DNA of 64,000 nucleotides, taken from the IMG/VR virus record IMGVR_UViG_3300048549_001527, one strand, 5' to 3'. A model generated the notes under the pieces. It worked only from the letters and a program-made list of their open reading frames with translations. It was not told the DNA's origin and made no database searches. The position numbers were made by a program, and so were the translations under genes. Position 1 is the stretch's first letter, and each line of letters opens with the position of its first letter. Shown one piece after another: positions 8,254 to 64,000 of the stretch. The stretch is from a virus (lineage: Duplodnaviria > Caudoviricetes).

Positions 8254-9603
8254 ATGAGTATACTTGATTTTGCAAAAGCAGAAAAAGAATATCCAATTTC
8301 ATCTGTTGCGAAAAACGAATGGCTTTCGTTTGCTATGTACACAGTTGAAAGTCGTGCTATTCCAAATATGATTGACGGATTGAAACCTGTTCAGCGTTTC
8401 TACTTATATTCATCAATCCTAAATTCTAAAAACGATTTCAAAAAGGTGTCTGCGGTTGCTGGTATTATATCAGACTACGGATACAACCACGGTGAAGCAA
8501 GCGCAGCTGGTGCCGGTCAACTTATGGCTGCAGAGTGGAACAATAATGTCTGCTTAGTTGAAGGACGAGGATCGTTTGGTACTCGGTTAGTTCAAGAGCC
8601 TGGTGCAGCTCGTTATGTTTACACTCGTTTACACCAAAACTTCAAAAAGTATATTCGTGATTTAGATCTATCTCCACAACATAGCGATCCTGAACACGAA
8701 CCTCCTTCGTTTTATATTCCAGTTATTCCACTCGTGTTGACTAATGGAACTAAAGGTATCGCAACTGGTTTTGCTACAAACATATTACCTCGAAGCGCTG
8801 ATGCACTTTCTCGTGCCTGTCGCGAATATGTGACGTATGGTAATATATCCAAAAGGCTTCCAGTGTCCTTTCCGGACTTCAAAGGTACCGTAAACTATGA
8901 CAAAACTGATGATAAATACACAGTTCTTGGTTGTTTTGAAAAGAAGAGTAAAACAGTATTAGAAATAACTGAAGTACCATATGGCTTTGACAGAGAAGGC
9001 TATGTTAAGGTACTTGACAAGTTAGAGGAAGACGGAGATATCGTTTCTTATGAAGATCTTTGCGATAAATCTGGTTTTAAATTTGAAGTTAAACTAAAAC
9101 AGAACAGCTCATCAACGTGGACTAACGTAAAAATTATTTCAAAATTTAAGCTATCAAAGCCATTAACTGAAAACTTAACAGTAATTGGATTTGACGGAAA
9201 GCTGCGTGAATATAAAGACGAACGGCAACTCATCAAAGACTTTTGTGAATTTCGTATGGGTGTTCTTCAGCAGCGTATTGATTTGCGCAAGAAAGAAGCT
9301 GAAGAAGAAATGCGTTGGCTGAACGTTAAAATGCAATTCATTCAAGCAGTACTTGACAATCGTATTGAGTTTAAAAATCAAAAGAAAGCTGACGTAGCTG
9401 AGCAGATTTATAAACAAACAGATGCAGTACGCAACCTTGACGATGTTGACCGTTGTCTCCGTATTAATATACTAAGTCTTACGCAAGAAATGGTAAAAGC
9501 ATTAGAAAAAGAAATCAAAGAGGCTGAAAAGGATCTTAAGTTTTGGTCCAAGACAACACCAGCAAAACAATTCACAACAGATCTTGACGAGTTGGATTCA
9601 TAA
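8254..9603 (+). CDS. gp52: DNA topoisomerase II medium subunit
   Basis: RAIPNMIDGLKPVQR, YNHGEAS, GSFG, AARY catalytic Tyr, GIATGF. Confidence 0.96.
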   Translation: MSILDFAKAEKEYPISSVAKNEWLSFAMYTVESRAIPNMIDGLKPVQRFYLYSSILNSKNDFKKVSAVAGIISDYGYNHGEASAAGAGQLMAAEWNNNVCLVEGRGSFGTRLVQEPGAARYVYTRLHQNFKKYIRDLDLSPQHSDPEHEPPSFYIPVIPLVLTNGTKGIATGFATNILPRSADALSRACREYVTYGNISKRLPVSFPDFKGTVNYDKTDDKYTVLGCFEKKSKTVLEITEVPYGFDREGYVKVLDKLEEDGDIVSYEDLCDKSGFKFEVKLKQNSSSTWTNVKIISKFKLSKPLTENLTVIGFDGKLREYKDERQLIKDFCEFRMGVLQQRIDLRKKEAEEEMRWLNVKMQFIQAVLDNRIEFKNQKKADVAEQIYKQTDAVRNLDDVDRCLRINILSLTQEMVKALEKEIKEAEKDLKFWSKTTPAKQFTTDLDELDS

Positions 9604-10536: not shown

Positions 10537-11031
10537 ATGCCTAACTGGTGTATGAACGATGTTCTTATTAGTGGACCTAAAGAAAAGATTACTGATCTGT
10601 ATAATAAAATAATGGATACAGGTGGTCTTTTAGAAGTTATGTCACCTCAAGGAGAATGGGATTATAGTAATGCAGTTGATAAGTGGGGTACCAAGTGGGA
10701 TGTAGATCCTGAAAATCTTGAAATTGAATTTGAGAAAGAAGAAGGCTCAATTTCAGGTACTGTGGACAGCGCATGGAGTCCTCCTGTAGAAGCATTTAAA
10801 ACCTTTTTGAATAATAACCCAGAATGTGTTGCTGAGCTTAGATATTACGAATCAGGTATGGAATTCATTGGAATATTTGCTGATGGCAAAAATGAATATT
10901 TTGAATATGATTCAAACGATATTAATTCGTTAGACTCGATTCCTAAAGATCTTGTAGAACACTTTAATCTTGAAGAAGAACTACAAATGAACTTTGATGA
11001 AAGTGAAGAAATTTGGGAAGATGAATATTAA
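10537..11031 (+). CDS. DUF1281/YubB ferredoxin-like domain protein
   Basis: MPNWC, KWGTKWDV, SAWSPP, YYESG motifs. Confidence 0.75.
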   Translation: MPNWCMNDVLISGPKEKITDLYNKIMDTGGLLEVMSPQGEWDYSNAVDKWGTKWDVDPENLEIEFEKEEGSISGTVDSAWSPPVEAFKTFLNNNPECVAELRYYESGMEFIGIFADGKNEYFEYDSNDINSLDSIPKDLVEHFNLEEELQMNFDESEEIWEDEY

Positions 11032-11407
11032 AGTAGATAATTTAGATGATTCTTTAACAAAAGACTTTGTTAATTTTTGTTGTAAAGAGCTTAATATAAA
11101 ACCTCATAGCATTGAAGTTGTTGGCGCTGCGTATTTAGCAGGTAAAGACAGAACAGGAATGTGTATAGATCTTGACGAACAAAGCTATATAATAATGACT
11201 GCAGTTAAAGATCGTACTCTTACTGAAATATATACTACTGTTGCACATGAAATAGTTCACATCAAACAATACATGGAAAATAATCTCGGTAAATTACTCG
11301 ACAGCAACAAACCAAAATACGAAGATCGTTGGTGGGAAAAGGAAGCAAGAGAAAAAAGTTTGGTTTTTGTGAAAAAATTTGTTGACATTCTTGATAGAAT
11401 CAGATAG
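11021..11407 (+). CDS. HExxH zinc metallopeptidase-like protein, paralog of 9603-10013
   Basis: TVAHEIVHIKQ plus WWEKEA; start moved to ATG 11021. Confidence 0.65.
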   Translation: MNIKVDNLDDSLTKDFVNFCCKELNIKPHSIEVVGAAYLAGKDRTGMCIDLDEQSYIIMTAVKDRTLTEIYTTVAHEIVHIKQYMENNLGKLLDSNKPKYEDRWWEKEAREKSLVFVKKFVDILDRIR

Positions 11408-13357: not shown

Positions 13358-14169
13358 TGGAGCCAAAACTAAAAGGATTTCCAAAGTGCTACGTTGTTAA
13401 CCTTGAAGAAAGTGTTGAACGTAGAGACTATATGAATTCCGAGTTTAATAGACTCGGTTTAGATGGAACCGTCCTACAATACAAAAGACTTGAAGACAGC
13501 GATTTAAAGATTGCTGGCGACCGTGACACCTTGGACATACTACCATTAGGTGCTACTACTTCTCATCTCCTGACCATTAAGTGGTGGTATGAAAATACTG
13601 ATGATGAACAAGCCGCATTCTTTGAAGACGACTGTGACTTTAGCACTATTCAACATTGGAACTTTGTTTATGAGGATTATGTTAAGGAGTTTGGCGTATT
13701 GTGGGATGGTCTCCAACTTTGCTGCATGCACGAAGGCTGGGCTGTTATGTATCCACGCCACCGCAACGGCCACGATCATGGACTTCAATGCTATGTAATT
13801 AAGCGCCATTATGCTAAAAAAATTATAGACTATTATTTTGTAAATGATAACACAATACATTTTAAAATGCCGTATGTATTAAAGAGTGAAGATAGTAAAA
13901 AGTATAAACCTACTATAGAAAATGTTGTATATGGATTAGGCACTTTCTATATTCACCCGTTATTTAATCATAACGTACCAAAATTTCCATCAACAGTTCA
14001 CGATCCAAATTCACAACATTTAAAAGATGTTGCTAATCACGCATATGGATATGTTAAACAGTGGTGGGAAACCAAAGGAGGAACTGGTAACCTTAATGAA
14101 TTATTTACTTATGAGTGGTGTTGTCCACCACCTCAAACATTTTCCCAAGTCATGCATATTGATAGGTAG
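13357..14169 (+). CDS. Glycosyltransferase family 25-like
   Basis: YVVNLEESVERR N-terminus, SHL, FFEDD. Confidence 0.75.
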   Translation: MEPKLKGFPKCYVVNLEESVERRDYMNSEFNRLGLDGTVLQYKRLEDSDLKIAGDRDTLDILPLGATTSHLLTIKWWYENTDDEQAAFFEDDCDFSTIQHWNFVYEDYVKEFGVLWDGLQLCCMHEGWAVMYPRHRNGHDHGLQCYVIKRHYAKKIIDYYFVNDNTIHFKMPYVLKSEDSKKYKPTIENVVYGLGTFYIHPLFNHNVPKFPSTVHDPNSQHLKDVANHAYGYVKQWWETKGGTGNLNELFTYEWCCPPPQTFSQVMHIDR

Positions 14170-31996: not shown

Positions 31997-32662
31997 ATGG
32001 CAATTTTTTCAGGCCGCATTGAAGATGCGCACTACATTAACGAAAAATACGATACAATAGAAATACTCTTTAAATCCGACGATCCTGAAGACACTAAACT
32101 TTATAAACATATTATTGAAGCAGATCCTAAATCTAAGGATTTTCAAGAATTACAAGCTGATGGTTGGGGTGATAAAGAATTATTAGATGCAACCGCAGAA
32201 TTTAAAAGACAACACGCAGCTACTTTCAATAATGCAGTTCAACAAAGAGCGAGCGCAATTGCTCGTGAAATGATTGGTTTAAACAATCTTAAAAGAGAAC
32301 GAGATACGTTAGAAAAAGAACGAGATAAAGTTAAAAACGATATTGAGCGACACCACGGCTGGCTTGAAGAAAAAAGAACCCTTATCAAAAAGAGTGATGA
32401 AAAGATTGACGAGCAGCAGGAAGAGTTAGCATACACTGAAAGCAAAATTAAAAAAACAGAGTTTCATGTTGATAATGCCTTACTTGAAATTGTTATGAAT
32501 CATAACGAACAAGGCGACGAACTATTTAAATTCAAACTTTGGGCTTTGGAGCAAGAATTTGTAAAATCAGCTCCAAAGGAAGTTAAATCAAAGATCCGTA
32601 GAGTAAAACGTATTACACAAGGAATTGCAATATTAGACGAGTTGATTGAGACAAACGAATAA
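31997..32662 (+). CDS. Hypothetical coiled-coil protein
   Basis: 221 aa, charged heptads. Confidence 0.75.
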   Translation: MAIFSGRIEDAHYINEKYDTIEILFKSDDPEDTKLYKHIIEADPKSKDFQELQADGWGDKELLDATAEFKRQHAATFNNAVQQRASAIAREMIGLNNLKRERDTLEKERDKVKNDIERHHGWLEEKRTLIKKSDEKIDEQQEELAYTESKIKKTEFHVDNALLEIVMNHNEQGDELFKFKLWALEQEFVKSAPKEVKSKIRRVKRITQGIAILDELIETNE

Positions 32663-33861
32663 TGAAATGCATGGTTCCTGAAACGGGCATTACAATTAAT
32701 CCAATAGGCGAAATGGTTTTATGCTGTGCCGGTGATAATGTTGCGGTTTCTCACATTAAAGATATTGATAACTTATCAGACTTTTTTAATGGTCCAATAT
32801 ATGATAAGTTAAGAAAAGATTTCAAAGAACAAAACTTTCCAAAACAATGTGATGTATGCTGGCGTCATTATAACGCAGGTCGTATTGCGCGATTTGATTC
32901 CTATAATCGTTTTAATTTTCCAACATATGAAGAAGATCTTGCGTCTGACGTAATACCAATTCGTTTTCTTGAAATTACAACAAGTAATATCTGTAACCAA
33001 ATGTGCGTTACTTGCTCAGGTAAGTATTCTTCAAAGTGGGCGCCATACGAACAGATGGCAGTTGATTATGGTTTAGATTGGAGAAACGAAAACCATAAAT
33101 TCCATACTGAAACATATAAGATGACAACGGCTGATGTTGACAAAGTACTTGAAATTGTTCCTGGGTTGCAACACTTAACTATTAAAGGTGGCGAACCTTT
33201 TGCAGATCAGAACAATATAAAAATATTAAGAAAGCTTGCAGACACAAATCCAAATTGCCGCGTTGAGATTTGTACTAATATGCAATTAGTAACAAACACA
33301 GTCATTGAATTATTACATCGCATTAATGAGGTTCATATACAAGCAAGTATAGACGGTGTTGGAGAAATATACGATTGGATTCGTGGTGGTAATTTTGCTA
33401 AGACCGCTAATAATATTAAAAGATATCACGCGCATTCAGGTCGCAAAGTGGTAATCGTATCAACCGTTTCAGTATATAATTGGATGCACTTACCTGAACT
33501 TATTGATTATTGGAGAGACGTAGATGGTGTTGATAGAATTAGTATGGCAAATATGGTAACGTTTCCAAAGTATTGCTCTCCTTTATATTTGTATAATCAT
33601 CATATTGAAGAAGGCTTAAACAAATTCTTTGAATATTTGGACAGTAAATATACAAAATCAAATGATTCTTTATATCATAGTGATAAGCTATTGGTAAGCG
33701 GTATTAACAATATGCTTAGTGTTAAGCCAGATTTTGAGGCAGATGAAAAACCAAGGTGGCAGGAACGCATGGTAAAGTGGATTGACTATTGTCATGTGGC
33801 GCGAGAAAATAACGAAGACATTTGGGAATTGGCTCCTTACTTACAGGAATATAGAAAATGA
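32662..33861 (+). CDS. Radical SAM enzyme with N-terminal Twitch/SPASM-like domain
   Basis: CNQMCVTC, GGEPF, TN; N-terminal C..LCC..CDVC. Confidence 0.9.
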   Translation: MKCMVPETGITINPIGEMVLCCAGDNVAVSHIKDIDNLSDFFNGPIYDKLRKDFKEQNFPKQCDVCWRHYNAGRIARFDSYNRFNFPTYEEDLASDVIPIRFLEITTSNICNQMCVTCSGKYSSKWAPYEQMAVDYGLDWRNENHKFHTETYKMTTADVDKVLEIVPGLQHLTIKGGEPFADQNNIKILRKLADTNPNCRVEICTNMQLVTNTVIELLHRINEVHIQASIDGVGEIYDWIRGGNFAKTANNIKRYHAHSGRKVVIVSTVSVYNWMHLPELIDYWRDVDGVDRISMANMVTFPKYCSPLYLYNHHIEEGLNKFFEYLDSKYTKSNDSLYHSDKLLVSGINNMLSVKPDFEADEKPRWQERMVKWIDYCHVARENNEDIWELAPYLQEYRK

Positions 33862-35024
33862 AATACGTAGATGTTGTAAATAAGTATAGATCTGATAACT
33901 TTCCAGATATGTATAAGCCTATAACTTGCTGGTCTCCATTTCAAGCTATGCATATTAATAAAAAAGGGGATGTTCGATCGTGTCCTTTTCAAATGAAAAA
34001 AGGAAGTGATAGATATTTTACTCGTGAAGACGGAACGACATACAGAGGTGAAAATATCGCAATTGAAACTTGGTCACCTGAAAAAAGCTTGCTTGATATA
34101 TGGAATGGCAAACCTTTTGAAGCTATGAGATTAGAATCTATGGAAGGTAGCCTACATGATTTTTGTCTTTATTGTATAAACCAATGTAAACAAGATAAGC
34201 CTCCTAGTAGCTTAGATTTTGATTGGGTTGGCGGCGAAAGAAGTATTTCTCACGAATATCCACGAGAAATAGAATTAGAACTTTCAAATAGTTGCAATTA
34301 TCATTGTGCATTTTGCAGTCCTTTTCATTCATCTCAACATATGGAAGCAATGGGATTACAGGATGATCCAAGATTTAAAAGCGTTTTTGACGATACAGAA
34401 ATTAAAGAAGCTTTTATTGAAGATTTAAGAAGTATTATTCATAACATTTATAGGCTTAACTTTACAGGTGGCGAGCCATTTGCACAAAGGGTTGTATATG
34501 ATATTCTTAAAATGATTGATGAAGAACAGCCTGAAAATTTAGGCGTTCATTTTACAACTAATGGTAGTATTATGAATGGCGCCGTTCGCAAAATAGCTCA
34601 AAGAAATAATGTAAGATTTACAGTATCATTAGACTCATTAGATCCAGAAACATATCCTCAATTAAGAATTAACGGTAATTTAGAAAACGTTTTAAATAAT
34701 ATCGAAACACTTAGACAAACCCAAGCCTACATCGGTTGTTCCTTTGTGATAAGTAAGATGAACGTTAGGGAATTGCCTAATATTATTTCATGGTGTAACG
34801 AAAAACAAATTGAATTTTCTTATCATCTTATTGTTCCGATGATGAACGAAAAAAAGTTTAGAGATATTGTTTATCCTCAATCGGTTGAACTTCAATCAAA
34901 AGAATATATACAAGAACTTAAAAGTTATTTAGGAAATGCTGAAATTTATATGAATAAGAAAAATGATTACTTGTCGAATAAAAACTTGACTATGTTTAAA
35001 CAATATATTGAAAGATTAAAATGA
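33858..35024 (+). CDS. Radical SAM enzyme with N-terminal Twitch/SPASM-like domain
   Basis: CNYHCAFC, GGEPF, TTNG, VSLDS; N-terminal CWSPF..SCP..CLYC. Confidence 0.9.
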   Translation: MKYVDVVNKYRSDNFPDMYKPITCWSPFQAMHINKKGDVRSCPFQMKKGSDRYFTREDGTTYRGENIAIETWSPEKSLLDIWNGKPFEAMRLESMEGSLHDFCLYCINQCKQDKPPSSLDFDWVGGERSISHEYPREIELELSNSCNYHCAFCSPFHSSQHMEAMGLQDDPRFKSVFDDTEIKEAFIEDLRSIIHNIYRLNFTGGEPFAQRVVYDILKMIDEEQPENLGVHFTTNGSIMNGAVRKIAQRNNVRFTVSLDSLDPETYPQLRINGNLENVLNNIETLRQTQAYIGCSFVISKMNVRELPNIISWCNEKQIEFSYHLIVPMMNEKKFRDIVYPQSVELQSKEYIQELKSYLGNAEIYMNKKNDYLSNKNLTMFKQYIERLK

Positions 35025-36121
35025 TTAAAAATTGGGATAAGTTTCAGGCGAGACGAAGAATACCTGAAGAACATAAAATGATTGGTTGTTATGCTGCATT
35101 CAATCATATGAGAATTTCAAAAGACGCTTCAGTGCATCCGTGTTGTTTTAATAACAAAAGACATAATTGGTTGCATGACGGTAGTTTAAAGGAATATTGG
35201 TTTAATGGATTAAACGTAGAATACCAAGATGCATTTTTAAATCAAGAACTACATGAAGGATGTCAAATTTGTTTGCAGAGAATTGAAGCAGACTCTCATC
35301 CTGCCATTGTTGAATATGATTACAATATGGGAGATGATAGATTAGAATACGCAATGAATTCTGGTAATTATCCTAAAATTATTGAATTTGAAATATCAGA
35401 TTTGTGCAATTTAGAATGTGAGATGTGCCATGCAGGATTATCATCAAAATTGAGAATGGGAAGAGATAAGCATTTAGTTTCTAAACATCCATACTATCGC
35501 CAAACAAATGAGTTTGATAAAGAAGAAAATATGAATGAGTTAATTGAGCAACTAAAAGAATTTATCCCTCATCTTGAAGAAATTAGATTTGTTGGTGGAG
35601 AGCCTTTCGCCCATAAAGGTATGTTTAAATTAGCAAAAGTTATTTCAGAAATTAACCCATCTGTTGTATTAAGGGTTTGTACTAATGGCACAATATTCAA
35701 TAAGCAAGTAAAAAGCATATGTGAAAATAATAATTTAAAAGTAACTATCTCTTGTGATACCGTTATAGAAGAAGAATATAAGCAAATTAGAATTGGCGCA
35801 AACTACAAAAATACATATGATAATATTCAAAAATTTAAAGAAGCAATTGGTACTGAAAATGTAACAATTAACGCGACATTTATGTCAGTAAATGCCGAAA
35901 ATATGGATAAATTTTTTGAGTATGCTATTGAAAATGGTTTTAATACATTTATTAATGTCTATGTTAGAGAATGGAGAGAGCATACAAAGGATTGGAGAAT
36001 TGAAACCATGTCCGATGAGGTTAAACGATCTGCATTAAATAAAATGAAAGAACTTTTAAATAAAACCAACAAGTCTAATCACGTGGCTGAAATTAATAAA
36101 GTTATAGGATTGTTGAGTTGA
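35021..36121 (+). CDS. Radical SAM enzyme with N-terminal Twitch/SPASM-like domain
   Basis: CNLECEMC, GGEPF, TNG; N-terminal CYAAF..PCC..CQIC. Confidence 0.9.
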   Translation: MIKNWDKFQARRRIPEEHKMIGCYAAFNHMRISKDASVHPCCFNNKRHNWLHDGSLKEYWFNGLNVEYQDAFLNQELHEGCQICLQRIEADSHPAIVEYDYNMGDDRLEYAMNSGNYPKIIEFEISDLCNLECEMCHAGLSSKLRMGRDKHLVSKHPYYRQTNEFDKEENMNELIEQLKEFIPHLEEIRFVGGEPFAHKGMFKLAKVISEINPSVVLRVCTNGTIFNKQVKSICENNNLKVTISCDTVIEEEYKQIRIGANYKNTYDNIQKFKEAIGTENVTINATFMSVNAENMDKFFEYAIENGFNTFINVYVREWREHTKDWRIETMSDEVKRSALNKMKELLNKTNKSNHVAEINKVIGLLS

Positions 36122-37185
36122 AACCGTGCTATTGGCCTGATCATGGAGCTGTTATAGATTCGCAGGGGTTTATCAAGCCGTGTTGCATGATGGGCGGTTA
36201 TGAGATGTTAAATAATAATCACAACGTTTTAGATGGTATACATATAGACCATACTGATTCTATAAATGAATATTTTTATAGTGATTTTTTAATCTATTTA
36301 AGAAAAAGTTTACAAGAAAACAACATTGAAGGCACACCAGAATGCCATAATTGTAAGCTGCAAATAGAAAATAACGTAGGTCGGCATTTTCAGCAATCAT
36401 ACGAGTATTCAGACTATGCGATGGATGGATCTATTAAATTTTTAGAAATTACCACGAGTAATATATGCAATCAAACATGCGTTACGTGTAACAGCTATTT
36501 TAGTTCTAAGTGGGAAACAATAGAACAACTGTTTAATGATAAATTTCAAAAACGAAAACAGTTTAATTTGTCCAATGATGCAATGGATAAAATTATTAAA
36601 GTTTTACCTGAGCTAAAAGTTCTTAATATAAAAGGTGGAGAACCTTTCGCTGATATTAGAAACGCAAAAATTTTGGAAAAATTAGTAGAAGTAAATCCAG
36701 ATTGCCAGGTTTGGATATTATCAAACGCGTCTATTATTTCTAATAGATTTATAAAAGTACTAAAAAGAATTAAAAACTTAAGCTTAACTGCTAGCTTAGA
36801 TCATATTGGTAAAAAATATGAGTGGATACGAAGTACTCCTTTTGACCAGACTCTATATACACTTAAAAGAATATATGAAGAAACTGGTATCAGATTTAGT
36901 GTTTCGCCTACAATATCATATTTTAATATATTAGATATGGAAGAAATTAAAAGCTTTTACGAAGATTTTGAGTATACAAAATGGCATATTCAAAATTATA
37001 ATGATTACAATTTTGTTCGTTGGCCAGCTGAGATGGATTGTCTTAATACGAGAACTCAAGAAGAGTTAGACTCTATAGATCGCGGACTAATATCTAAGTT
37101 TAATCCTCATAAATATAACGAGTTACAAAATAAAATTAATATTATGAATGAAATAAGAGGATTTGATTGGTCAGATGAATTATAA
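36118..37185 (+). CDS. Radical SAM enzyme with N-terminal Twitch/SPASM-like domain
   Basis: CNQTCVTC, GGEPF; N-terminal CYWP..PCC..CHNC. Confidence 0.9.
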   Translation: MKPCYWPDHGAVIDSQGFIKPCCMMGGYEMLNNNHNVLDGIHIDHTDSINEYFYSDFLIYLRKSLQENNIEGTPECHNCKLQIENNVGRHFQQSYEYSDYAMDGSIKFLEITTSNICNQTCVTCNSYFSSKWETIEQLFNDKFQKRKQFNLSNDAMDKIIKVLPELKVLNIKGGEPFADIRNAKILEKLVEVNPDCQVWILSNASIISNRFIKVLKRIKNLSLTASLDHIGKKYEWIRSTPFDQTLYTLKRIYEETGIRFSVSPTISYFNILDMEEIKSFYEDFEYTKWHIQNYNDYNFVRWPAEMDCLNTRTQEELDSIDRGLISKFNPHKYNELQNKINIMNEIRGFDWSDEL

Positions 37186-38359
37186 GAGATGGCAATGGCA
37201 TAACTTAACGTTTGACGTTGAACTTACTACGCACTGTAATCTCAAGTGCCCACAGTGTTCAAGGACAGATCATAGGAATAATTTAAATAAGATGGAGTGG
37301 TTACCGCTTACGTCTGTTAGCCTAAAAGATTTCATGAAATGGTTTCCTCCGACTATTATACAATCAATTGGGTGTATTCATTTTTCAGGAACTTACGGCG
37401 ATCCTGGGATGTGTAAAGATCTAATGGATATTGTTAAGTATCTTGCGTTAGAAGGTACTTGCCGTATTTCTATAAATACAAATGGATCCATGAGAGATGA
37501 AGAGTTTTGGTTTAACCTTGCGGCTTGGGGTGGTTCAAGACTTCAACTTATATTTGATGTTGACGGTATTGACCAAGAAATGCATAGCTTTTATCGCCGA
37601 GGATCCGATCTCAATAAAGTATTAGATGCAATAGAAGTAACCTCAGGTACTGATGCAAATATCAAAGTACTTACTGTTTTATTTAAACACAATCAAGACT
37701 ATCTTGAAGATATTCGTAATATGGTTAACGAACGCGTACAAAAGCCAATTAAGTTTGATGAAGTAGAAGGAAATAACTTTCAGCATACTGGATCTAAATA
37801 TGAATTTTTAAACGAGAATGGCGAGACTGAAATTCTTGAGCAGGTTACACGACAAGATAGAGAACAAGGATTAGAACGTAGAACTCGTCGAGTACGTGAT
37901 CATCGCCATAAAGATATTGTTACCAATATTAAATCAAATGAATCTAATTTATTACCTATTGAGGATAAACCTATTATACCACAGGTAGTTGAGCCTGTCA
38001 AACAAAAAACGAAAGAATACGAAATAAATTGTTTAGCTGTTGGCGAGAATAATATCAAAGTACAAGCAAGTGGTATGGTATCGCCATGCTGTTATCTTTC
38101 AACATCGTTAGAGCGAGCTGCTATCTACCAAAAAGATCAAGACACTCAATATATGATTACGTCAACTGGCAAACATGCTGATCCCAAACATCCATTAATG
38201 CAAGAATATGTTGACAATTGGAAAGATTTTAATTTACATTATAGTAGTATCTATGATATAATGGAATCAACGTGGTTTAAAGAAAAGCTTCCTGAGCATT
38301 GGGAAACTCCTGAAACGGCTTGCCACGCTTGTGTTAAAGTATGCGGAAAATTAAAATGA
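37163..38359 (+). CDS. Radical SAM enzyme with C-terminal SPASM domain
   Basis: CNLKCPQC, GTYGDP, TNGS; C-terminal C..PCCY..CHACVKVC. Confidence 0.9.
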   Translation: MIGQMNYKRWQWHNLTFDVELTTHCNLKCPQCSRTDHRNNLNKMEWLPLTSVSLKDFMKWFPPTIIQSIGCIHFSGTYGDPGMCKDLMDIVKYLALEGTCRISINTNGSMRDEEFWFNLAAWGGSRLQLIFDVDGIDQEMHSFYRRGSDLNKVLDAIEVTSGTDANIKVLTVLFKHNQDYLEDIRNMVNERVQKPIKFDEVEGNNFQHTGSKYEFLNENGETEILEQVTRQDREQGLERRTRRVRDHRHKDIVTNIKSNESNLLPIEDKPIIPQVVEPVKQKTKEYEINCLAVGENNIKVQASGMVSPCCYLSTSLERAAIYQKDQDTQYMITSTGKHADPKHPLMQEYVDNWKDFNLHYSSIYDIMESTWFKEKLPEHWETPETACHACVKVCGKLK

Positions 38360-61076: not shown

Positions 61077-61412
61077 ATGTTAAAATACATTACTTTAGGA
61101 CTACTTGCTGCGAGCTCTGCTGTGGCACAAGAACAAGGTGATATCACACGACATCCTTGTGGATCGTTTGAAGAAGCTGGAGCAATTTTAAAATCAACAG
61201 GGCAAGATATGCTTTGGAAAGGCCGCGGCACAACATTCCATATTAGCGGTGAGCAACAAACACCTGAAGTGGTATTCCATGTTAATCAGAAAACCGGTGC
61301 ATGGAGTTTAGTATCGTTATATCCAGGAAACATAGCTTGTTTAGTAATGGCGGGATGGGGGTTTGAGCCTTATTCAATTCCAACAAAAAAAATTGAAAAA
61401 AAATCCCCATAA
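61077..61412 (+). CDS. Secreted hypothetical protein
   Basis: GGAG RBS; signal peptide MLKYITLGLLAASSAVA; two Cys. Confidence 0.7.
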   Translation: MLKYITLGLLAASSAVAQEQGDITRHPCGSFEEAGAILKSTGQDMLWKGRGTTFHISGEQQTPEVVFHVNQKTGAWSLVSLYPGNIACLVMAGWGFEPYSIPTKKIEKKSP

Positions 61413-61970: not shown

Positions 61971-62003
61971 TTGACAAAATAATAAACTATGTTATATTGA
62001 TTC
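61971..62003 (+). promoter_or_regulatory. Sigma70 promoter with GANTC after the -10 box
   Basis: TTGACA-N16-(TGt)TATATT-GATTC. Confidence 0.65.
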
Positions 62004-62011
62004 TAATAACG

Positions 62012-62039
62012 GTCAAACCCTATACTGGGTTTGACTTTT
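62012..62039 (+). terminator. Perfect 9-bp inverted repeat with short U-tract (terminator, attenuator or operator)
   Basis: GTCAAACCC-TATACT-GGGTTTGAC-TTTT. Confidence 0.5.
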
Positions 62040-62058
62040 AACACACACGGAGAGTAAT

Positions 62059-62418
62059 ATGAAAAAGGTAAAACCCATTGGATGGGCAACCACATTGACT
62101 GAAATTGCAAGTATTCCTAAAGATATGTGGGATAGCGTAATGACAGTAGAAAAATCCCCACTACAAAATTTAGACCCTATGGTAGGACACATGATCTTTC
62201 AGTGTCTATTCTTTATTTGGTCTGGTATTTTTGCATTAATGGTAGGAAGTTATTTGGCATTTGGAATTAGTGCTGCGTTTCACCTATTGCTTATTAGCGG
62301 TATTACAATTACAGTTGTGACATTTCGTCAAGCAGAAAACAATCCCGAGTCTCTTAACAATCTTTTAAAATCAGGTCGTAAATATAATGGCCGTGCAAAT
62401 GGTGGTGAGCATGAGTGA
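62059..62418 (+). CDS. Hypothetical two-TM membrane protein
   Basis: SPLQNLDPMVGHMIFQCLFFIWSGIF; two His in TM helices. Confidence 0.75.
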   Translation: MKKVKPIGWATTLTEIASIPKDMWDSVMTVEKSPLQNLDPMVGHMIFQCLFFIWSGIFALMVGSYLAFGISAAFHLLLISGITITVVTFRQAENNPESLNNLLKSGRKYNGRANGGEHE

Positions 62419-62569
62419 GCAAACACAATATTGCACAACCAAAGGCTTAGGCTGGGCATTCTTGATTATTATTATTATGATGGTAGGTTTACCTATTCTT
62501 GGTTCAGCAATTGCTTACCCAGATAATTGTAAGCAATCTATTCTTATTCCGTGTATAGGTTTAGAGTAA
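62411..62569 (+). CDS. Small membrane protein
   Basis: One TM helix flanked by three Cys. Confidence 0.6.
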   Translation: MSEQTQYCTTKGLGWAFLIIIIMMVGLPILGSAIAYPDNCKQSILIPCIGLE

Positions 62570-62748
62570 TGCATATTGTTAGAAAAAAATCTGGTGAAAT
62601 AATTGCAATCGCATCACGTTTAGAAGATGCGATTTCAATTGCAGATGGTGCAAAAGTTGATAAAGAAGATTATGTTGTTCAAGAGTCAACTGACCAACAA
62701 GAACTCGCAGAAGTTTATCGTTCTTATTATGGGACAAGATCACTATGA
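62569..62748 (+). CDS. Hypothetical protein
   Basis: TAATG / ATGA coupling. Confidence 0.6.
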   Translation: MHIVRKKSGEIIAIASRLEDAISIADGAKVDKEDYVVQESTDQQELAEVYRSYYGTRSL

Positions 62749-62951
62749 CTGATGATGAAGTACGTGCAGCCGCTCAGAAAGAAGCGGAAAAAACCTTTGA
62801 TGGCTTCATCTTATGGTCTAAACGAACTACCTATGCTTCGATTGCATTTTTATTGATTGTAGCATCGTGTAACTTTGGGGTAGAGGACGACACCTATCCT
62901 GCCTATAATGGCGAACAATATAATCCGTCCAATCTTAATGTAAAGAAATAA
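62745..62951 (+). CDS. aa3-type cytochrome c oxidase subunit IV-like protein
   Basis: EAEKTFDGFILWSKRTTYASIAFLLIVASCN resembles Paracoccus/Rhodobacter subunit IV ([30 protein letters not shown]). Confidence 0.65.
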   Translation: MTDDEVRAAAQKEAEKTFDGFILWSKRTTYASIAFLLIVASCNFGVEDDTYPAYNGEQYNPSNLNVKK

Positions 62952-62966
62952 AGATAGGAAACAAAT

Positions 62967-63395
62967 ATGAAAAATTTAATTACCGCTAGTATTATGGCGC
63001 TTTTTGCAACAACGGCATATGCTGAAGATATGACTGTTGAAATGTTGAACAAACGTGATGATGGCGCTAAGATGGTATATAGTGAAGATATCGCACGTAT
63101 TGACGTAGGTGATACAATCACATGGGTACCAACATCAAAAGGTCACAATGTAGAATTTATTGCGGGCCCAGACGGATGGAAAGCACCAAAGAAATCAAAA
63201 CTTAACAAAGAAGTGGCGATTACATTTGATACACCAGGCGTATATCTATATCAGTGTTCGCCACACAAAACAATGGGCATGATTGCCATTGTGGTTGTAG
63301 GTAAGCCAGAAGGTGAAGCTAAAGATCGTTTGAAAGATGTCAAAGTAAAAGGCAAGTCAAAGAAGAAGTTCAAAGAGTTACTGGCTGATCTATAA
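62967..63395 (+). CDS. paz: Pseudoazurin (type 1 blue copper protein)
   Basis: Signal peptide; VEMLNK, GDTITWVPTSKGHNVE, YQCSPHKTMGM with all four Cu ligands (His, Cys, His, Met). Confidence 0.9.
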   Translation: MKNLITASIMALFATTAYAEDMTVEMLNKRDDGAKMVYSEDIARIDVGDTITWVPTSKGHNVEFIAGPDGWKAPKKSKLNKEVAITFDTPGVYLYQCSPHKTMGMIAIVVVGKPEGEAKDRLKDVKVKGKSKKKFKELLADL

Positions 63396-63685
63396 TGTGT
63401 CCAGCATGTTACATTAACGGACTTCTGTTGCTTATATTTGGAGCAACAGGGGCGCAATTAGCCAGCAACCCTTGGATTATTGCACTCAGTACAGTGCTTA
63501 CTATTGGCGGCTTTTGGTGGATGTGGCGAGCATACAAACGCAGCAAAGGCAAAGGCGGACTAAAAAAGAATCTTAAGATTACGGCTTTGGTTTTATTTGC
63601 ATTTGCGGCAGGCTATGTTACGGCAGCATATCAAACACATGAGTATTGGCAAGAAGCATATGGTGCTGAGGATCATTTAGAATGA
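63395..63685 (+). CDS. Three-TM membrane protein with N-terminal CPAC
   Basis: MCPACY, three hydrophobic helices; TAATG coupling to pseudoazurin. Confidence 0.7.
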   Translation: MCPACYINGLLLLIFGATGAQLASNPWIIALSTVLTIGGFWWMWRAYKRSKGKGGLKKNLKITALVLFAFAAGYVTAAYQTHEYWQEAYGAEDHLE

Positions 63686-63695
63686 GCAAGCCGAA

Positions 63696-64000
63696 ATGAA
63701 AAGTTTAGTTGATAAAATACCAGAGTTTTGTATGAGCCATTGGTTACTTCGTATTCCATTGGCCATCGTATTCCTTCAACAGGGCCTTGATAAATGGCCC
63801 GTTGATGCTGGAACAGCAGAGTCCTTTGCACTACCACTAATTGTTTGGGTCTTTGTTGTTTATGGTGAAATTGGTTCAGGAGTCGGATTACTCGTTGGCG
63901 GAGTACTTGCCAATTGGTTTAAAGAATTGGGCGATCTAACTACGCGGTTTAGTGGTATTACAATCTGTAGTATTATGACAGGCGTTATTTGGATCGGCGA
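63696..64000 (+). CDS. DoxX-family membrane protein, partial (runs off window)
   Basis: Read manually: WLLRIPLAIVFLQQGLDKW...LIVWVFVVYGEIGSGVGLLVG...TRFSG. Confidence 0.75.
   Translation, partial: MKSLVDKIPEFCMSHWLLRIPLAIVFLQQGLDKWPVDAGTAESFALPLIVWVFVVYGEIGSGVGLLVGGVLANWFKELGDLTTRFSGITICSIMTGVIWIG

Follow-up and report, generated by a model that had tools for sequence, protein, structure and literature searches.

A pseudoazurin cassette with candidate respiratory partners in an uncultured marine T4-like phage

The 64,000-nucleotide (nt) stretch analysed here (the window; IMG/VR record IMGVR_UViG_3300048549_001527) comes from an uncultured marine T4-like phage. Its last ~2 kb, positions 62059-64000, hold a cassette of seven open reading frames (ORFs) on the + strand, in which a pseudoazurin gene stands together with genes for a peptide resembling cytochrome oxidase subunit IV and for a DoxX protein. 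Neighbouring ORFs overlap or are separated by no more than 15 nt, in agreement with the sequence-only reading of this DNA, which had described one tightly coupled operon. In window order we labelled the genes A119, B52, C59, D68, pseudoazurin, F96 and DoxX. A119 (62059-62418) codes for a protein of 119 amino acids (aa) with two transmembrane (TM) segments and no known family, B52 (62411-62569) for a 52-aa single-TM protein in which conservation among relatives revealed three invariant Cys, and C59 (62569-62748) for a 59-aa soluble protein. D68 (62745-62951) encodes the 68-aa subunit-IV-like peptide, matched by PF07835. It is followed by the 142-aa pseudoazurin precursor (62967-63395; PF00127, TIGR02375 and PDB matches), by F96 (63395-63685), a 96-aa three-TM protein starting with MCPAC, and by DoxX (63696-64000), a four-TM protein matched by PF07681 and truncated by the window end. 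Neither C59 nor F96 matched a family above threshold in family profile scans.

A putative sigma-70-like promoter was found at 61971-61998 (+), directly after the stop codon of the Hsp20 gene. It consists of TTGACA, 16 nt and TATATT, with TG before the -10 element, and matches 11 of 12 consensus positions. The other end of the operon was located on locus L081, a 191-kb JGI contig that is identical to the window across 11,034 nt and carries the promoter at 9005-9032. There the DoxX gene is complete (133 aa, 10730-11131) and is followed by three small soluble ORFs and then by a bidirectional hairpin terminator, past which lie convergent baseplate, tail-tube and gp2-like genes. The operon thus runs past the window, as had been proposed from the sequence, and is bracketed by a sigma-70-like promoter and a terminal hairpin.

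Two further features were seen just upstream of A119. A 9-bp hairpin (GTCAAACCC, 6-nt loop, GGGTTTGAC) followed by TTTT occupies 62013-62041 (+); since it lies between the promoter and the first gene, it would be part of a predicted 5' leader, and it could be either the Hsp20 terminator or an attenuator. Between the dUTPase and Hsp20 genes, 61077-61412 (+) encodes a protein of 111 aa that has a signal peptide but matched no family, a further phage product predicted for export that is encoded shortly before the cassette.

The gene content of the window is that of a T4-like phage, with genes for gp46/47-like nuclease subunits, UvsW, UvsY, both topoisomerase II subunits, thymidylate synthase, sliding clamp, clamp loader, RegA, dUTPase and Hsp20. 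No isolate has a clamp loader more than 55% identical to this one, the closest being those of a Stenotrophomonas phage, the Methylophilales Melnitz phages and cyanophages, while RegA is closest to marine single-virus genomes and Pelagibacter phage Mosig. With the genes seen on L081, the cassette is flanked on both sides by phage core genes. Assemblies of JGI, ENA and Logan together contained the exact pseudoazurin protein on no fewer than 21 contigs, and 14 DNA runs, labelled as seawater, marine or freshwater metagenomes, contained at least 81% of the words of the stretch. The GC content of the cassette matches that of the remainder of the window.

The sequence-only reading had suggested searches with hidden Markov models of three families, and all three scored above their Pfam thresholds: 58.8 bits against a cut-off of 21.2 for PF00127 (pseudoazurin), 26.1 against 22 for PF07835 (COX4_pro_2; D68) and 29.5 against 23.6 for PF07681 (DoxX). 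For the pseudoazurin, the NCBI equivalog model TIGR02375 gave 109.3 bits along model positions 1-115 of 116, which is 0.55 bit under its cut-off of 109.85, whereas the plastocyanin model scored 35 bits. The closest PDB match was pseudoazurin 3tu6 (E 3e-26), aligned along the whole mature length, and the 22 best PDB matches were all pseudoazurins, one of them named 'blue copper protein'. Public annotation pipelines already name the protein 'pseudoazurin'.

The residues expected to bind copper, H60, C97, H100 and M105, line up with the ligand loop of 3tu6 and 1bqk and were invariant in 15 diverse viral and cellular homologues. The N-terminus has a hydrophobic Sec signal ending in A-Y-A, after which the mature protein would start with E-D-M, so that export is predicted. 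The secreted pseudoazurin with all four copper ligands that had been read from the sequence was therefore upheld, also with respect to purifying selection (below). In comparison with the alphaproteobacterial pseudoazurins of Sinorhizobium meliloti (3tu6), Achromobacter cycloclastes (1bqk) and Paracoccus pantotrophus (3erx), the phage protein aligns at full length, retains the C-terminal helical extension, the ligand set H, C-x2-H-x4-M and the Lys-rich surface, and has roughly half of the residues aligned with 3tu6 identical, as read off the alignment. Unlike them, it is a viral gene product. What can be claimed most safely is that a functional one-electron carrier for the periplasm would be made early in infection.

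D68 was more complicated. Eleven of 15 members of its family matched PF07835 at E <= 0.01. A search of 177,635 PDB sequences with a single D68 sequence (phmmer) gave no match; with the family profile, which alone gave matches, the top five were subunit IV chains of Paracoccus and Rhodobacter, at E values of 0.3-1. In a six-frame search of 401 alphaproteobacterial genomes, the same profile had a single match, a canonical 44-aa subunit IV (the G390 peptide), with which D68 has in common an E-K-T-F-x-G-F-I-x-W-S start and the helix. The T-F-x-G-F motif followed by one TM helix is likewise found in the aa3 oxidase subunit IV of Paracoccus (1qle chain D) and Rhodobacter (1m56 chain D). From these profile matches, we consider it likely that D68 is homologous to aa3 oxidase subunit IV.

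D68 is, nevertheless, not a plain member of that family. The cellular peptides have ~36-50 aa (36 aa in SAR11, 44 aa in G390) and end just after the TM helix, whereas D68 continues to 68 aa. A lipobox-like V-x-[GSA]-C (V-V-G-C, V-A-S-C or close variants) followed by Asn was found at the end of the helix in 120 of 120 D68 members, and after it comes a conserved tail of 26 aa (23-31 aa across members) with the motif Y-N-G-E-Q-Y-x-P(S), predicted to be periplasmic. Both the invariant Cys and the tail are foreign to the cellular family. The D68 family was found in viruses only, in ~1,380 clusters, and in a language-model atlas D68 and A119 returned viral hypothetical clusters only. The subunit-IV-like peptide that had been noticed from the sequence thus passed the profile tests, while its length, lipobox and tail set it apart from the family after which it had been named. 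The accompanying statement that subunit IV of this type is alphaproteobacterial held for the COX4_pro_2 family, and the nearest pseudoazurins were alphaproteobacterial as well.

Because the lipobox and the tail are foreign to subunit IV, a small lipoprotein is a competing reading of D68. Like a lipoprotein, it has a lipobox and basic residues (K-R) before the hydrophobic stretch, but it differs from one in the length and conservation of the N-terminal part: the Cys comes after 41 residues, against ~15-30 in usual, poorly conserved lipoprotein signal peptides, and the first 25 residues are conserved, with A10, Q11 and F21 invariant. This conserved cytoplasmic N-terminus argues that the helix part matters. 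It is possible that the helix is kept as an anchor with a periplasmic tail, or that signal peptidase II cuts the protein to leave a small lipopeptide.

The last of the three family assignments, DoxX, agreed with what had been read from the sequence, since the phage protein passed the family cut-off and has R19, F26, G30, K33, E58, G69, T83, R84 and G87 in common with cellular DoxX. Four TM segments and the invariant residues are as in known members of the family (DoxD of the archaeal thiosulfate:quinone oxidoreductase, Mycobacterium DoxX, Bacillus MhqP). Compared with ordinary DoxX, however, the phage protein is 28-38% identical and belongs to a distinct subfamily with a conserved N-terminal P-E-F-C-x-x-H-W and with Gln in place of the motif His.

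Of the small proteins, A119 corresponds to the His-containing two-TM protein reported earlier, and its His44 and His75 are indeed conserved, as is an invariant C-terminal GGEHE. Its predicted model is a helical hairpin, for which the fold search returned weak matches with poor superposition, among them two that carry the name DUF2628. An 89-aa homologue without the GGEHE end was found in a Rhodospirillaceae metagenome-assembled genome (MAG), 1.3 kb from a pseudoazurin gene (L113, 7776-8045, -), indicating that the A119 family is not purely viral. In B52, which is usually just upstream of D68, the invariant residues are C8, C40 and C48. The CPAC three-TM protein, F96, is present as described; it is an accessory gene of close relatives only.

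We examined how the seven genes are distributed among viruses. IMG/VR contained 328 confirmed pseudoazurin loci, with more than 5,500 protein clusters, and 466 D68 loci, in which the ~1,380 D68 clusters were all unnamed. For comparison of gene content, 86 pseudoazurin loci were used, 80 from IMG/VR and six with the identical protein. D68 was present in 62 of the 86 and DoxX in 60, followed by B52 (51), A119 (50), C59 (40) and F96 (10). Starting from D68, pseudoazurin was found in 74% and DoxX in 58% of 57 loci with adequate flanks; starting from DoxX, D68 was found in 68% and pseudoazurin in 57% of 37 loci. Gene order is permuted between lineages, with D68 and DoxX before or after pseudoazurin and adjacency kept. 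Each pair among pseudoazurin, D68 and DoxX was also found without the third gene, and loci with pseudoazurin only exist. Median pairwise dN/dS indicated purifying selection in all five families examined: 0.10 for A119, 0.12 for DoxX, 0.13 for pseudoazurin, 0.18 for D68 and 0.27 for B52. The cassette proteins are real and constrained; they travel together and are individually dispensable.

The cassette has features by which auxiliary metabolic genes are recognized, as it lies amid phage genes on long viral contigs, recurs in independent samples and is under purifying selection. Metatranscriptome contigs from four marine studies matched pseudoazurin and parts of its neighbours at >=90%; some parts of the stretch had no metatranscriptome contig in the same data, which does not indicate that they are silent. 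We regard the matches as a weak sign of expression in infection because carry-over of DNA is possible.

Five related viral records, one of which is 86% complete and the others fragments, were searched for respiratory and photosynthetic genes. SCO1, COX2 or another part of the oxidase core, c-type cytochrome families and psbA were not found in these five. From this result, the cassette must plug into host complexes, and the lack of psbA in these records fits a non-cyanobacterial host.

To see whether the arrangement exists in cells, a comparison that the sequence-only reading had called for, we used 80 cellular pseudoazurin loci from SAR11, SAR116, OCS116/PS1 and Rhodobacteraceae and inspected 6 kb around each. 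DoxX or D68 was found near pseudoazurin in none of the 80, so the gene neighbours of the phage protein are unlike those of any cellular locus in the set. This result suggests that the cluster is phage-specific and was assembled by phages. In Pelagibacter HTCC9565, all three families are present but dispersed: a 36-aa subunit IV adjoins pntA, an ordinary DoxX lies with pirin, a CDGSH protein and a quinone oxidoreductase, and pseudoazurin (L116, 3452-9218) lies among a SorA-like molybdopterin oxidoreductase, a TauE sulfite exporter and genes of molybdenum cofactor biosynthesis. The last neighbourhood suggests that sulfite oxidation may be a source of electrons for SAR11 pseudoazurin.

In a maximum-likelihood tree, the viral pseudoazurins formed one clade, whose sister group was four Rhodobacteraceae of the Ascidiaceihabitans type (SH-aLRT 92, 64-67% identity). 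The genomes of this sister group have ~50% GC against 36% in the phage. DoxX led elsewhere. DoxX of the viral type, with 46-61% identity, was found on the chromosome in 19 of 42 genomes of one alphaproteobacterial family with genomes of 0.8-2 Mb and, at the examined loci, 28-32% GC; a similar copy with 61% identity to the phage protein is in a genome labelled Candidatus Pelagibacterales, counted apart from that family. As pseudoazurin and DoxX have different nearest cellular relatives, the cassette appears to have been put together in phages from separate parts.

The surroundings of viral-type DoxX were inspected in 20 cellular loci. In six of them it was directly upstream of NDH-2, and in three it was divergent from Hsp20, amid housekeeping genes (L327, L328, L330 / L333, L334). 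At L308/L312 (1465-3399), L313-L316 and L329, the distance from DoxX to NDH-2 is ~50 nt and this type II NADH dehydrogenase has a C-terminal cyclic-nucleotide-binding domain. Hsp20 also directly follows pseudoazurin in four SAR11 (Pelagibacteraceae) loci (L140, L153, L162, L166). These cellular Hsp20 neighbourhoods echo the order in the phage, where Hsp20 comes just before the cassette.

Five genomes with viral-type DoxX, four of the family above and the one labelled Pelagibacterales, were checked for the other two families. COX4_pro_2 was present in all five and pseudoazurin in four, at 53-56% identity. The host is probably a low-GC alphaproteobacterium, and the lineage with viral-type DoxX is a candidate. 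The host signals disagree, however, since the sister group of the pseudoazurin is the ~50% GC Rhodobacteraceae rather than the low-GC DoxX family.

Two contigs filed under cellular names were left out of the cellular counts because they look viral. L091, filed as a Neomarinimicrobiota MAG, has ~35% GC and carries DNA ligase, a phosphoesterase, pseudoazurin and two A119 paralogues. L092, which had been binned with Rhodobacteraceae and likewise has ~35% GC, carries glycosyl- or methyltransferase-like genes, and its pseudoazurin is inside the viral clade. Both are probably mis-binned viral contigs.

Taken together, we favour, with a probability of about one half, an early auxiliary cassette in which the viral pseudoazurin serves as a respiratory electron carrier with DoxX and D68 as its membrane partners. 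The cassette would be expressed early, and the pseudoazurin would be exported through the Sec pathway, bind copper in the periplasm and carry single electrons from cytochrome bc1 or periplasmic dehydrogenases to a terminal oxidase. One partner would be DoxX, of a subfamily adjoining the quinone reductase NDH-2 in some bacteria, and the other would be D68, a descendant of aa3 oxidase subunit IV that has gained a Cys and a periplasmic tail. Such a cassette would keep or redirect electron flow, and hence the energy supply, during the shutdown of host synthesis, as a heterotroph analogue of cyanophage plastocyanin. That the carrier sustains or redirects host electron flow is suggested by this analogy, and the respiratory reading gains from the match of D68 to an oxidase subunit and from the neighbourhood of the DoxX subfamily with NDH-2. 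A respiratory role is plausible from the sequences; copper loading, the redox partners, contact with oxidase or quinone and the benefit to the phage are what we infer, and the substitution of copper for iron carriers raised in the sequence-only reading is likewise a suggestion.

Several observations weigh against this reading. Pseudoazurin of Paracoccus is known above all for passing electrons to peroxidase and to the reductases of nitrite, N2O and NO, and not to aa3 oxidase. Every member of the D68 family differs from subunit IV by the lipobox-like Cys and the tail, and the PDB matches of the family have E values of 0.3-1. The viral DoxX has Gln where the cellular h-G-x-x-K motif has His. Any accessory gene can be absent from a locus, and the five related viral records are without genes for the oxidase core, SCO1 or c-type cytochromes. 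Finally, the Hsp20 that adjoins the phage cassette and some bacterial pseudoazurin and DoxX genes fits a stress role equally well.

A more specific form of the respiratory reading can be drawn, in which D68 would become part of the host aa3 oxidase and offer its tail, possibly held by a lipid anchor, as the docking site for pseudoazurin, while DoxX would pass electrons from quinol to pseudoazurin, making a copper shortcut around bc1 and c-type cytochromes. We consider this form a long shot.

The alternative that survives best, although we judge it unlikely, is a module for envelope redox, stress or copper handling, in which the cupredoxin, DoxX, B52 and F96 would protect or condition the periplasm and inner membrane without carrying a respiratory current. 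Its targets could be oxidative or quinone stress, or the delivery or buffering of copper. The start of the cassette directly after the phage Hsp20 fits this explanation, as do the four SAR11 loci with Hsp20 after pseudoazurin, the three loci with DoxX divergent from Hsp20 and the grouping of ordinary SAR11 DoxX with pirin, a CDGSH protein and a quinone oxidoreductase. The invariant Cys of B52 and the CPAC motif of F96 resemble metal or thiol sites. DoxX genes occur in copper- or gold-induced operons, and a paper on the copper resistance systems of Cupriavidus, including the Gig determinant, reportedly mentions DoxX. A type-1 copper protein with the full pseudoazurin ligand loop is, however, an electron carrier and not a chaperone, the likeness of D68 to oxidase subunit IV and the adjacency of DoxX to NDH-2 point to the respiratory chain, and F96 was found in only 10 of the 86 loci.

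It is rather unlikely that small, unrelated genes for envelope proteins have merely gathered in a hyperplastic region of the phage genome, with pseudoazurin as the only auxiliary metabolic gene and D68 as a small lipoprotein that might serve superinfection exclusion or receptor masking and whose likeness to subunit IV would be a by-product of its hydrophobic signal. The universal lipobox-like motif, with K-R ahead of the hydrophobic stretch, agrees with this explanation, and the PDB matches of the D68 profile are individually non-significant. For every gene there are loci in which the others are missing, among them loci with pseudoazurin only, and the D68 and A119 families are almost wholly viral. 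What speaks for a functional set is that adjacency was kept through several gene orders and genome positions. Conservation of the 25 N-terminal cytoplasmic residues of D68 is unusual for a signal peptide, and subunit IV chains were both the top five of 177,635 PDB sequences and, in the canonical form, the sole match in 401 genomes.

We find it improbable that the phage pseudoazurin serves partners of low-oxygen metabolism (copper nitrite reductase, N2O or NO reductase, cytochrome c peroxidase) instead of aerobic respiration, although these reductases and the peroxidase are the classical partners of pseudoazurins. The runs that contain the cassette are labelled seawater, marine or freshwater metagenomes and come without oxygen values, and the linked D68 resembles a subunit of the aa3 oxidase. 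No nirK was noticed in the flanks, in which no systematic search for it was made. Pseudoazurin does lie beside nirK and cbb3 oxidase genes in some SAR11 genomes (PMC12816887), which would favour low-oxygen partners, but the cellular pseudoazurin loci examined here adjoin other genes, such as that for the SorA-like molybdenum oxidoreductase in SAR11.

The chance that host DNA was misassembled onto a phage contig, to which the position of the cassette at the window end and the cellular family names of its genes might have pointed and which had been set beforehand as a refuting outcome, is practically nil, since the identical 191-kb contig runs on into phage baseplate and tail genes, the exact pseudoazurin recurs in independent assemblies, 14 runs contain most of the stretch, the GC content is uniform and phage core genes stand on both sides.

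Among the known systems close to the respiratory cassette favoured here are plastocyanin (petE) and related auxiliary genes of photosynthetic electron transport in T4-like cyanophages. Plastocyanin is also a small exported type-1 copper carrier in marine T4-like phages, and the phage pseudoazurin has a weak PHROG match to petE (phrog_515, E 8e-8). The presumed logic is the same, namely that host electron flow is sustained during infection. The cassette differs from the cyanophage system in that the carrier is of the pseudoazurin type, its companions are DoxX and a subunit-IV-like peptide instead of photosystem genes, and the related phages are without psbA.

In searches with tblastn against 50,697 GenBank phage records, neither pseudoazurin nor D68 had a match. 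No published description of a phage pseudoazurin or of this gene set was found in the literature on pseudoazurin in phages, viromes and SAR11 or on DoxX with phage and copper, and the pelagimyophage paper makes no mention of pseudoazurin. Auxiliary genes for electron carriers are known in phages; what is new is a different type of carrier, in non-cyanophages, with phage-specific partners. Also new are the invariant lipobox-like Cys and conserved tail of D68, absent from the cellular family, and the finding that the cellular DoxX most similar to the phage protein (up to 61%) belongs to the chromosomes of a family of low-GC alphaproteobacteria with small genomes, in some of them next to NDH-2 or Hsp20.

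Photosynthesis genes of cyanophages are the textbook case of viral steering of host energy metabolism, and far less is known for the phages of the heterotrophic bacteria that dominate the ocean. The cassette is abundant and conserved, occurs on hundreds of IMG/VR contigs and combines genes of different origins that phages brought together. Should it feed or rewire respiration, infection would alter the O2 consumption, the energy yield and the demand for copper and iron of marine alphaproteobacteria, and the poorly understood oxidase subunit IV and DoxX families would gain a testable function.

Other parts of the window were also noted. At 32662-38359 (+) there is an uninterrupted series of five radical SAM genes, of which two have SPASM domains, with further unnamed ORFs behind it; this looks like a peptide- or cofactor-modifying cluster. 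ARAGORN predicted a tRNA-Asn with the unusual anticodon ATT at 13400-13486 (-), and the window further carries tRNA-Arg(TCT), tRNA-Leu(TAA) and tRNA-Pro(TGG).

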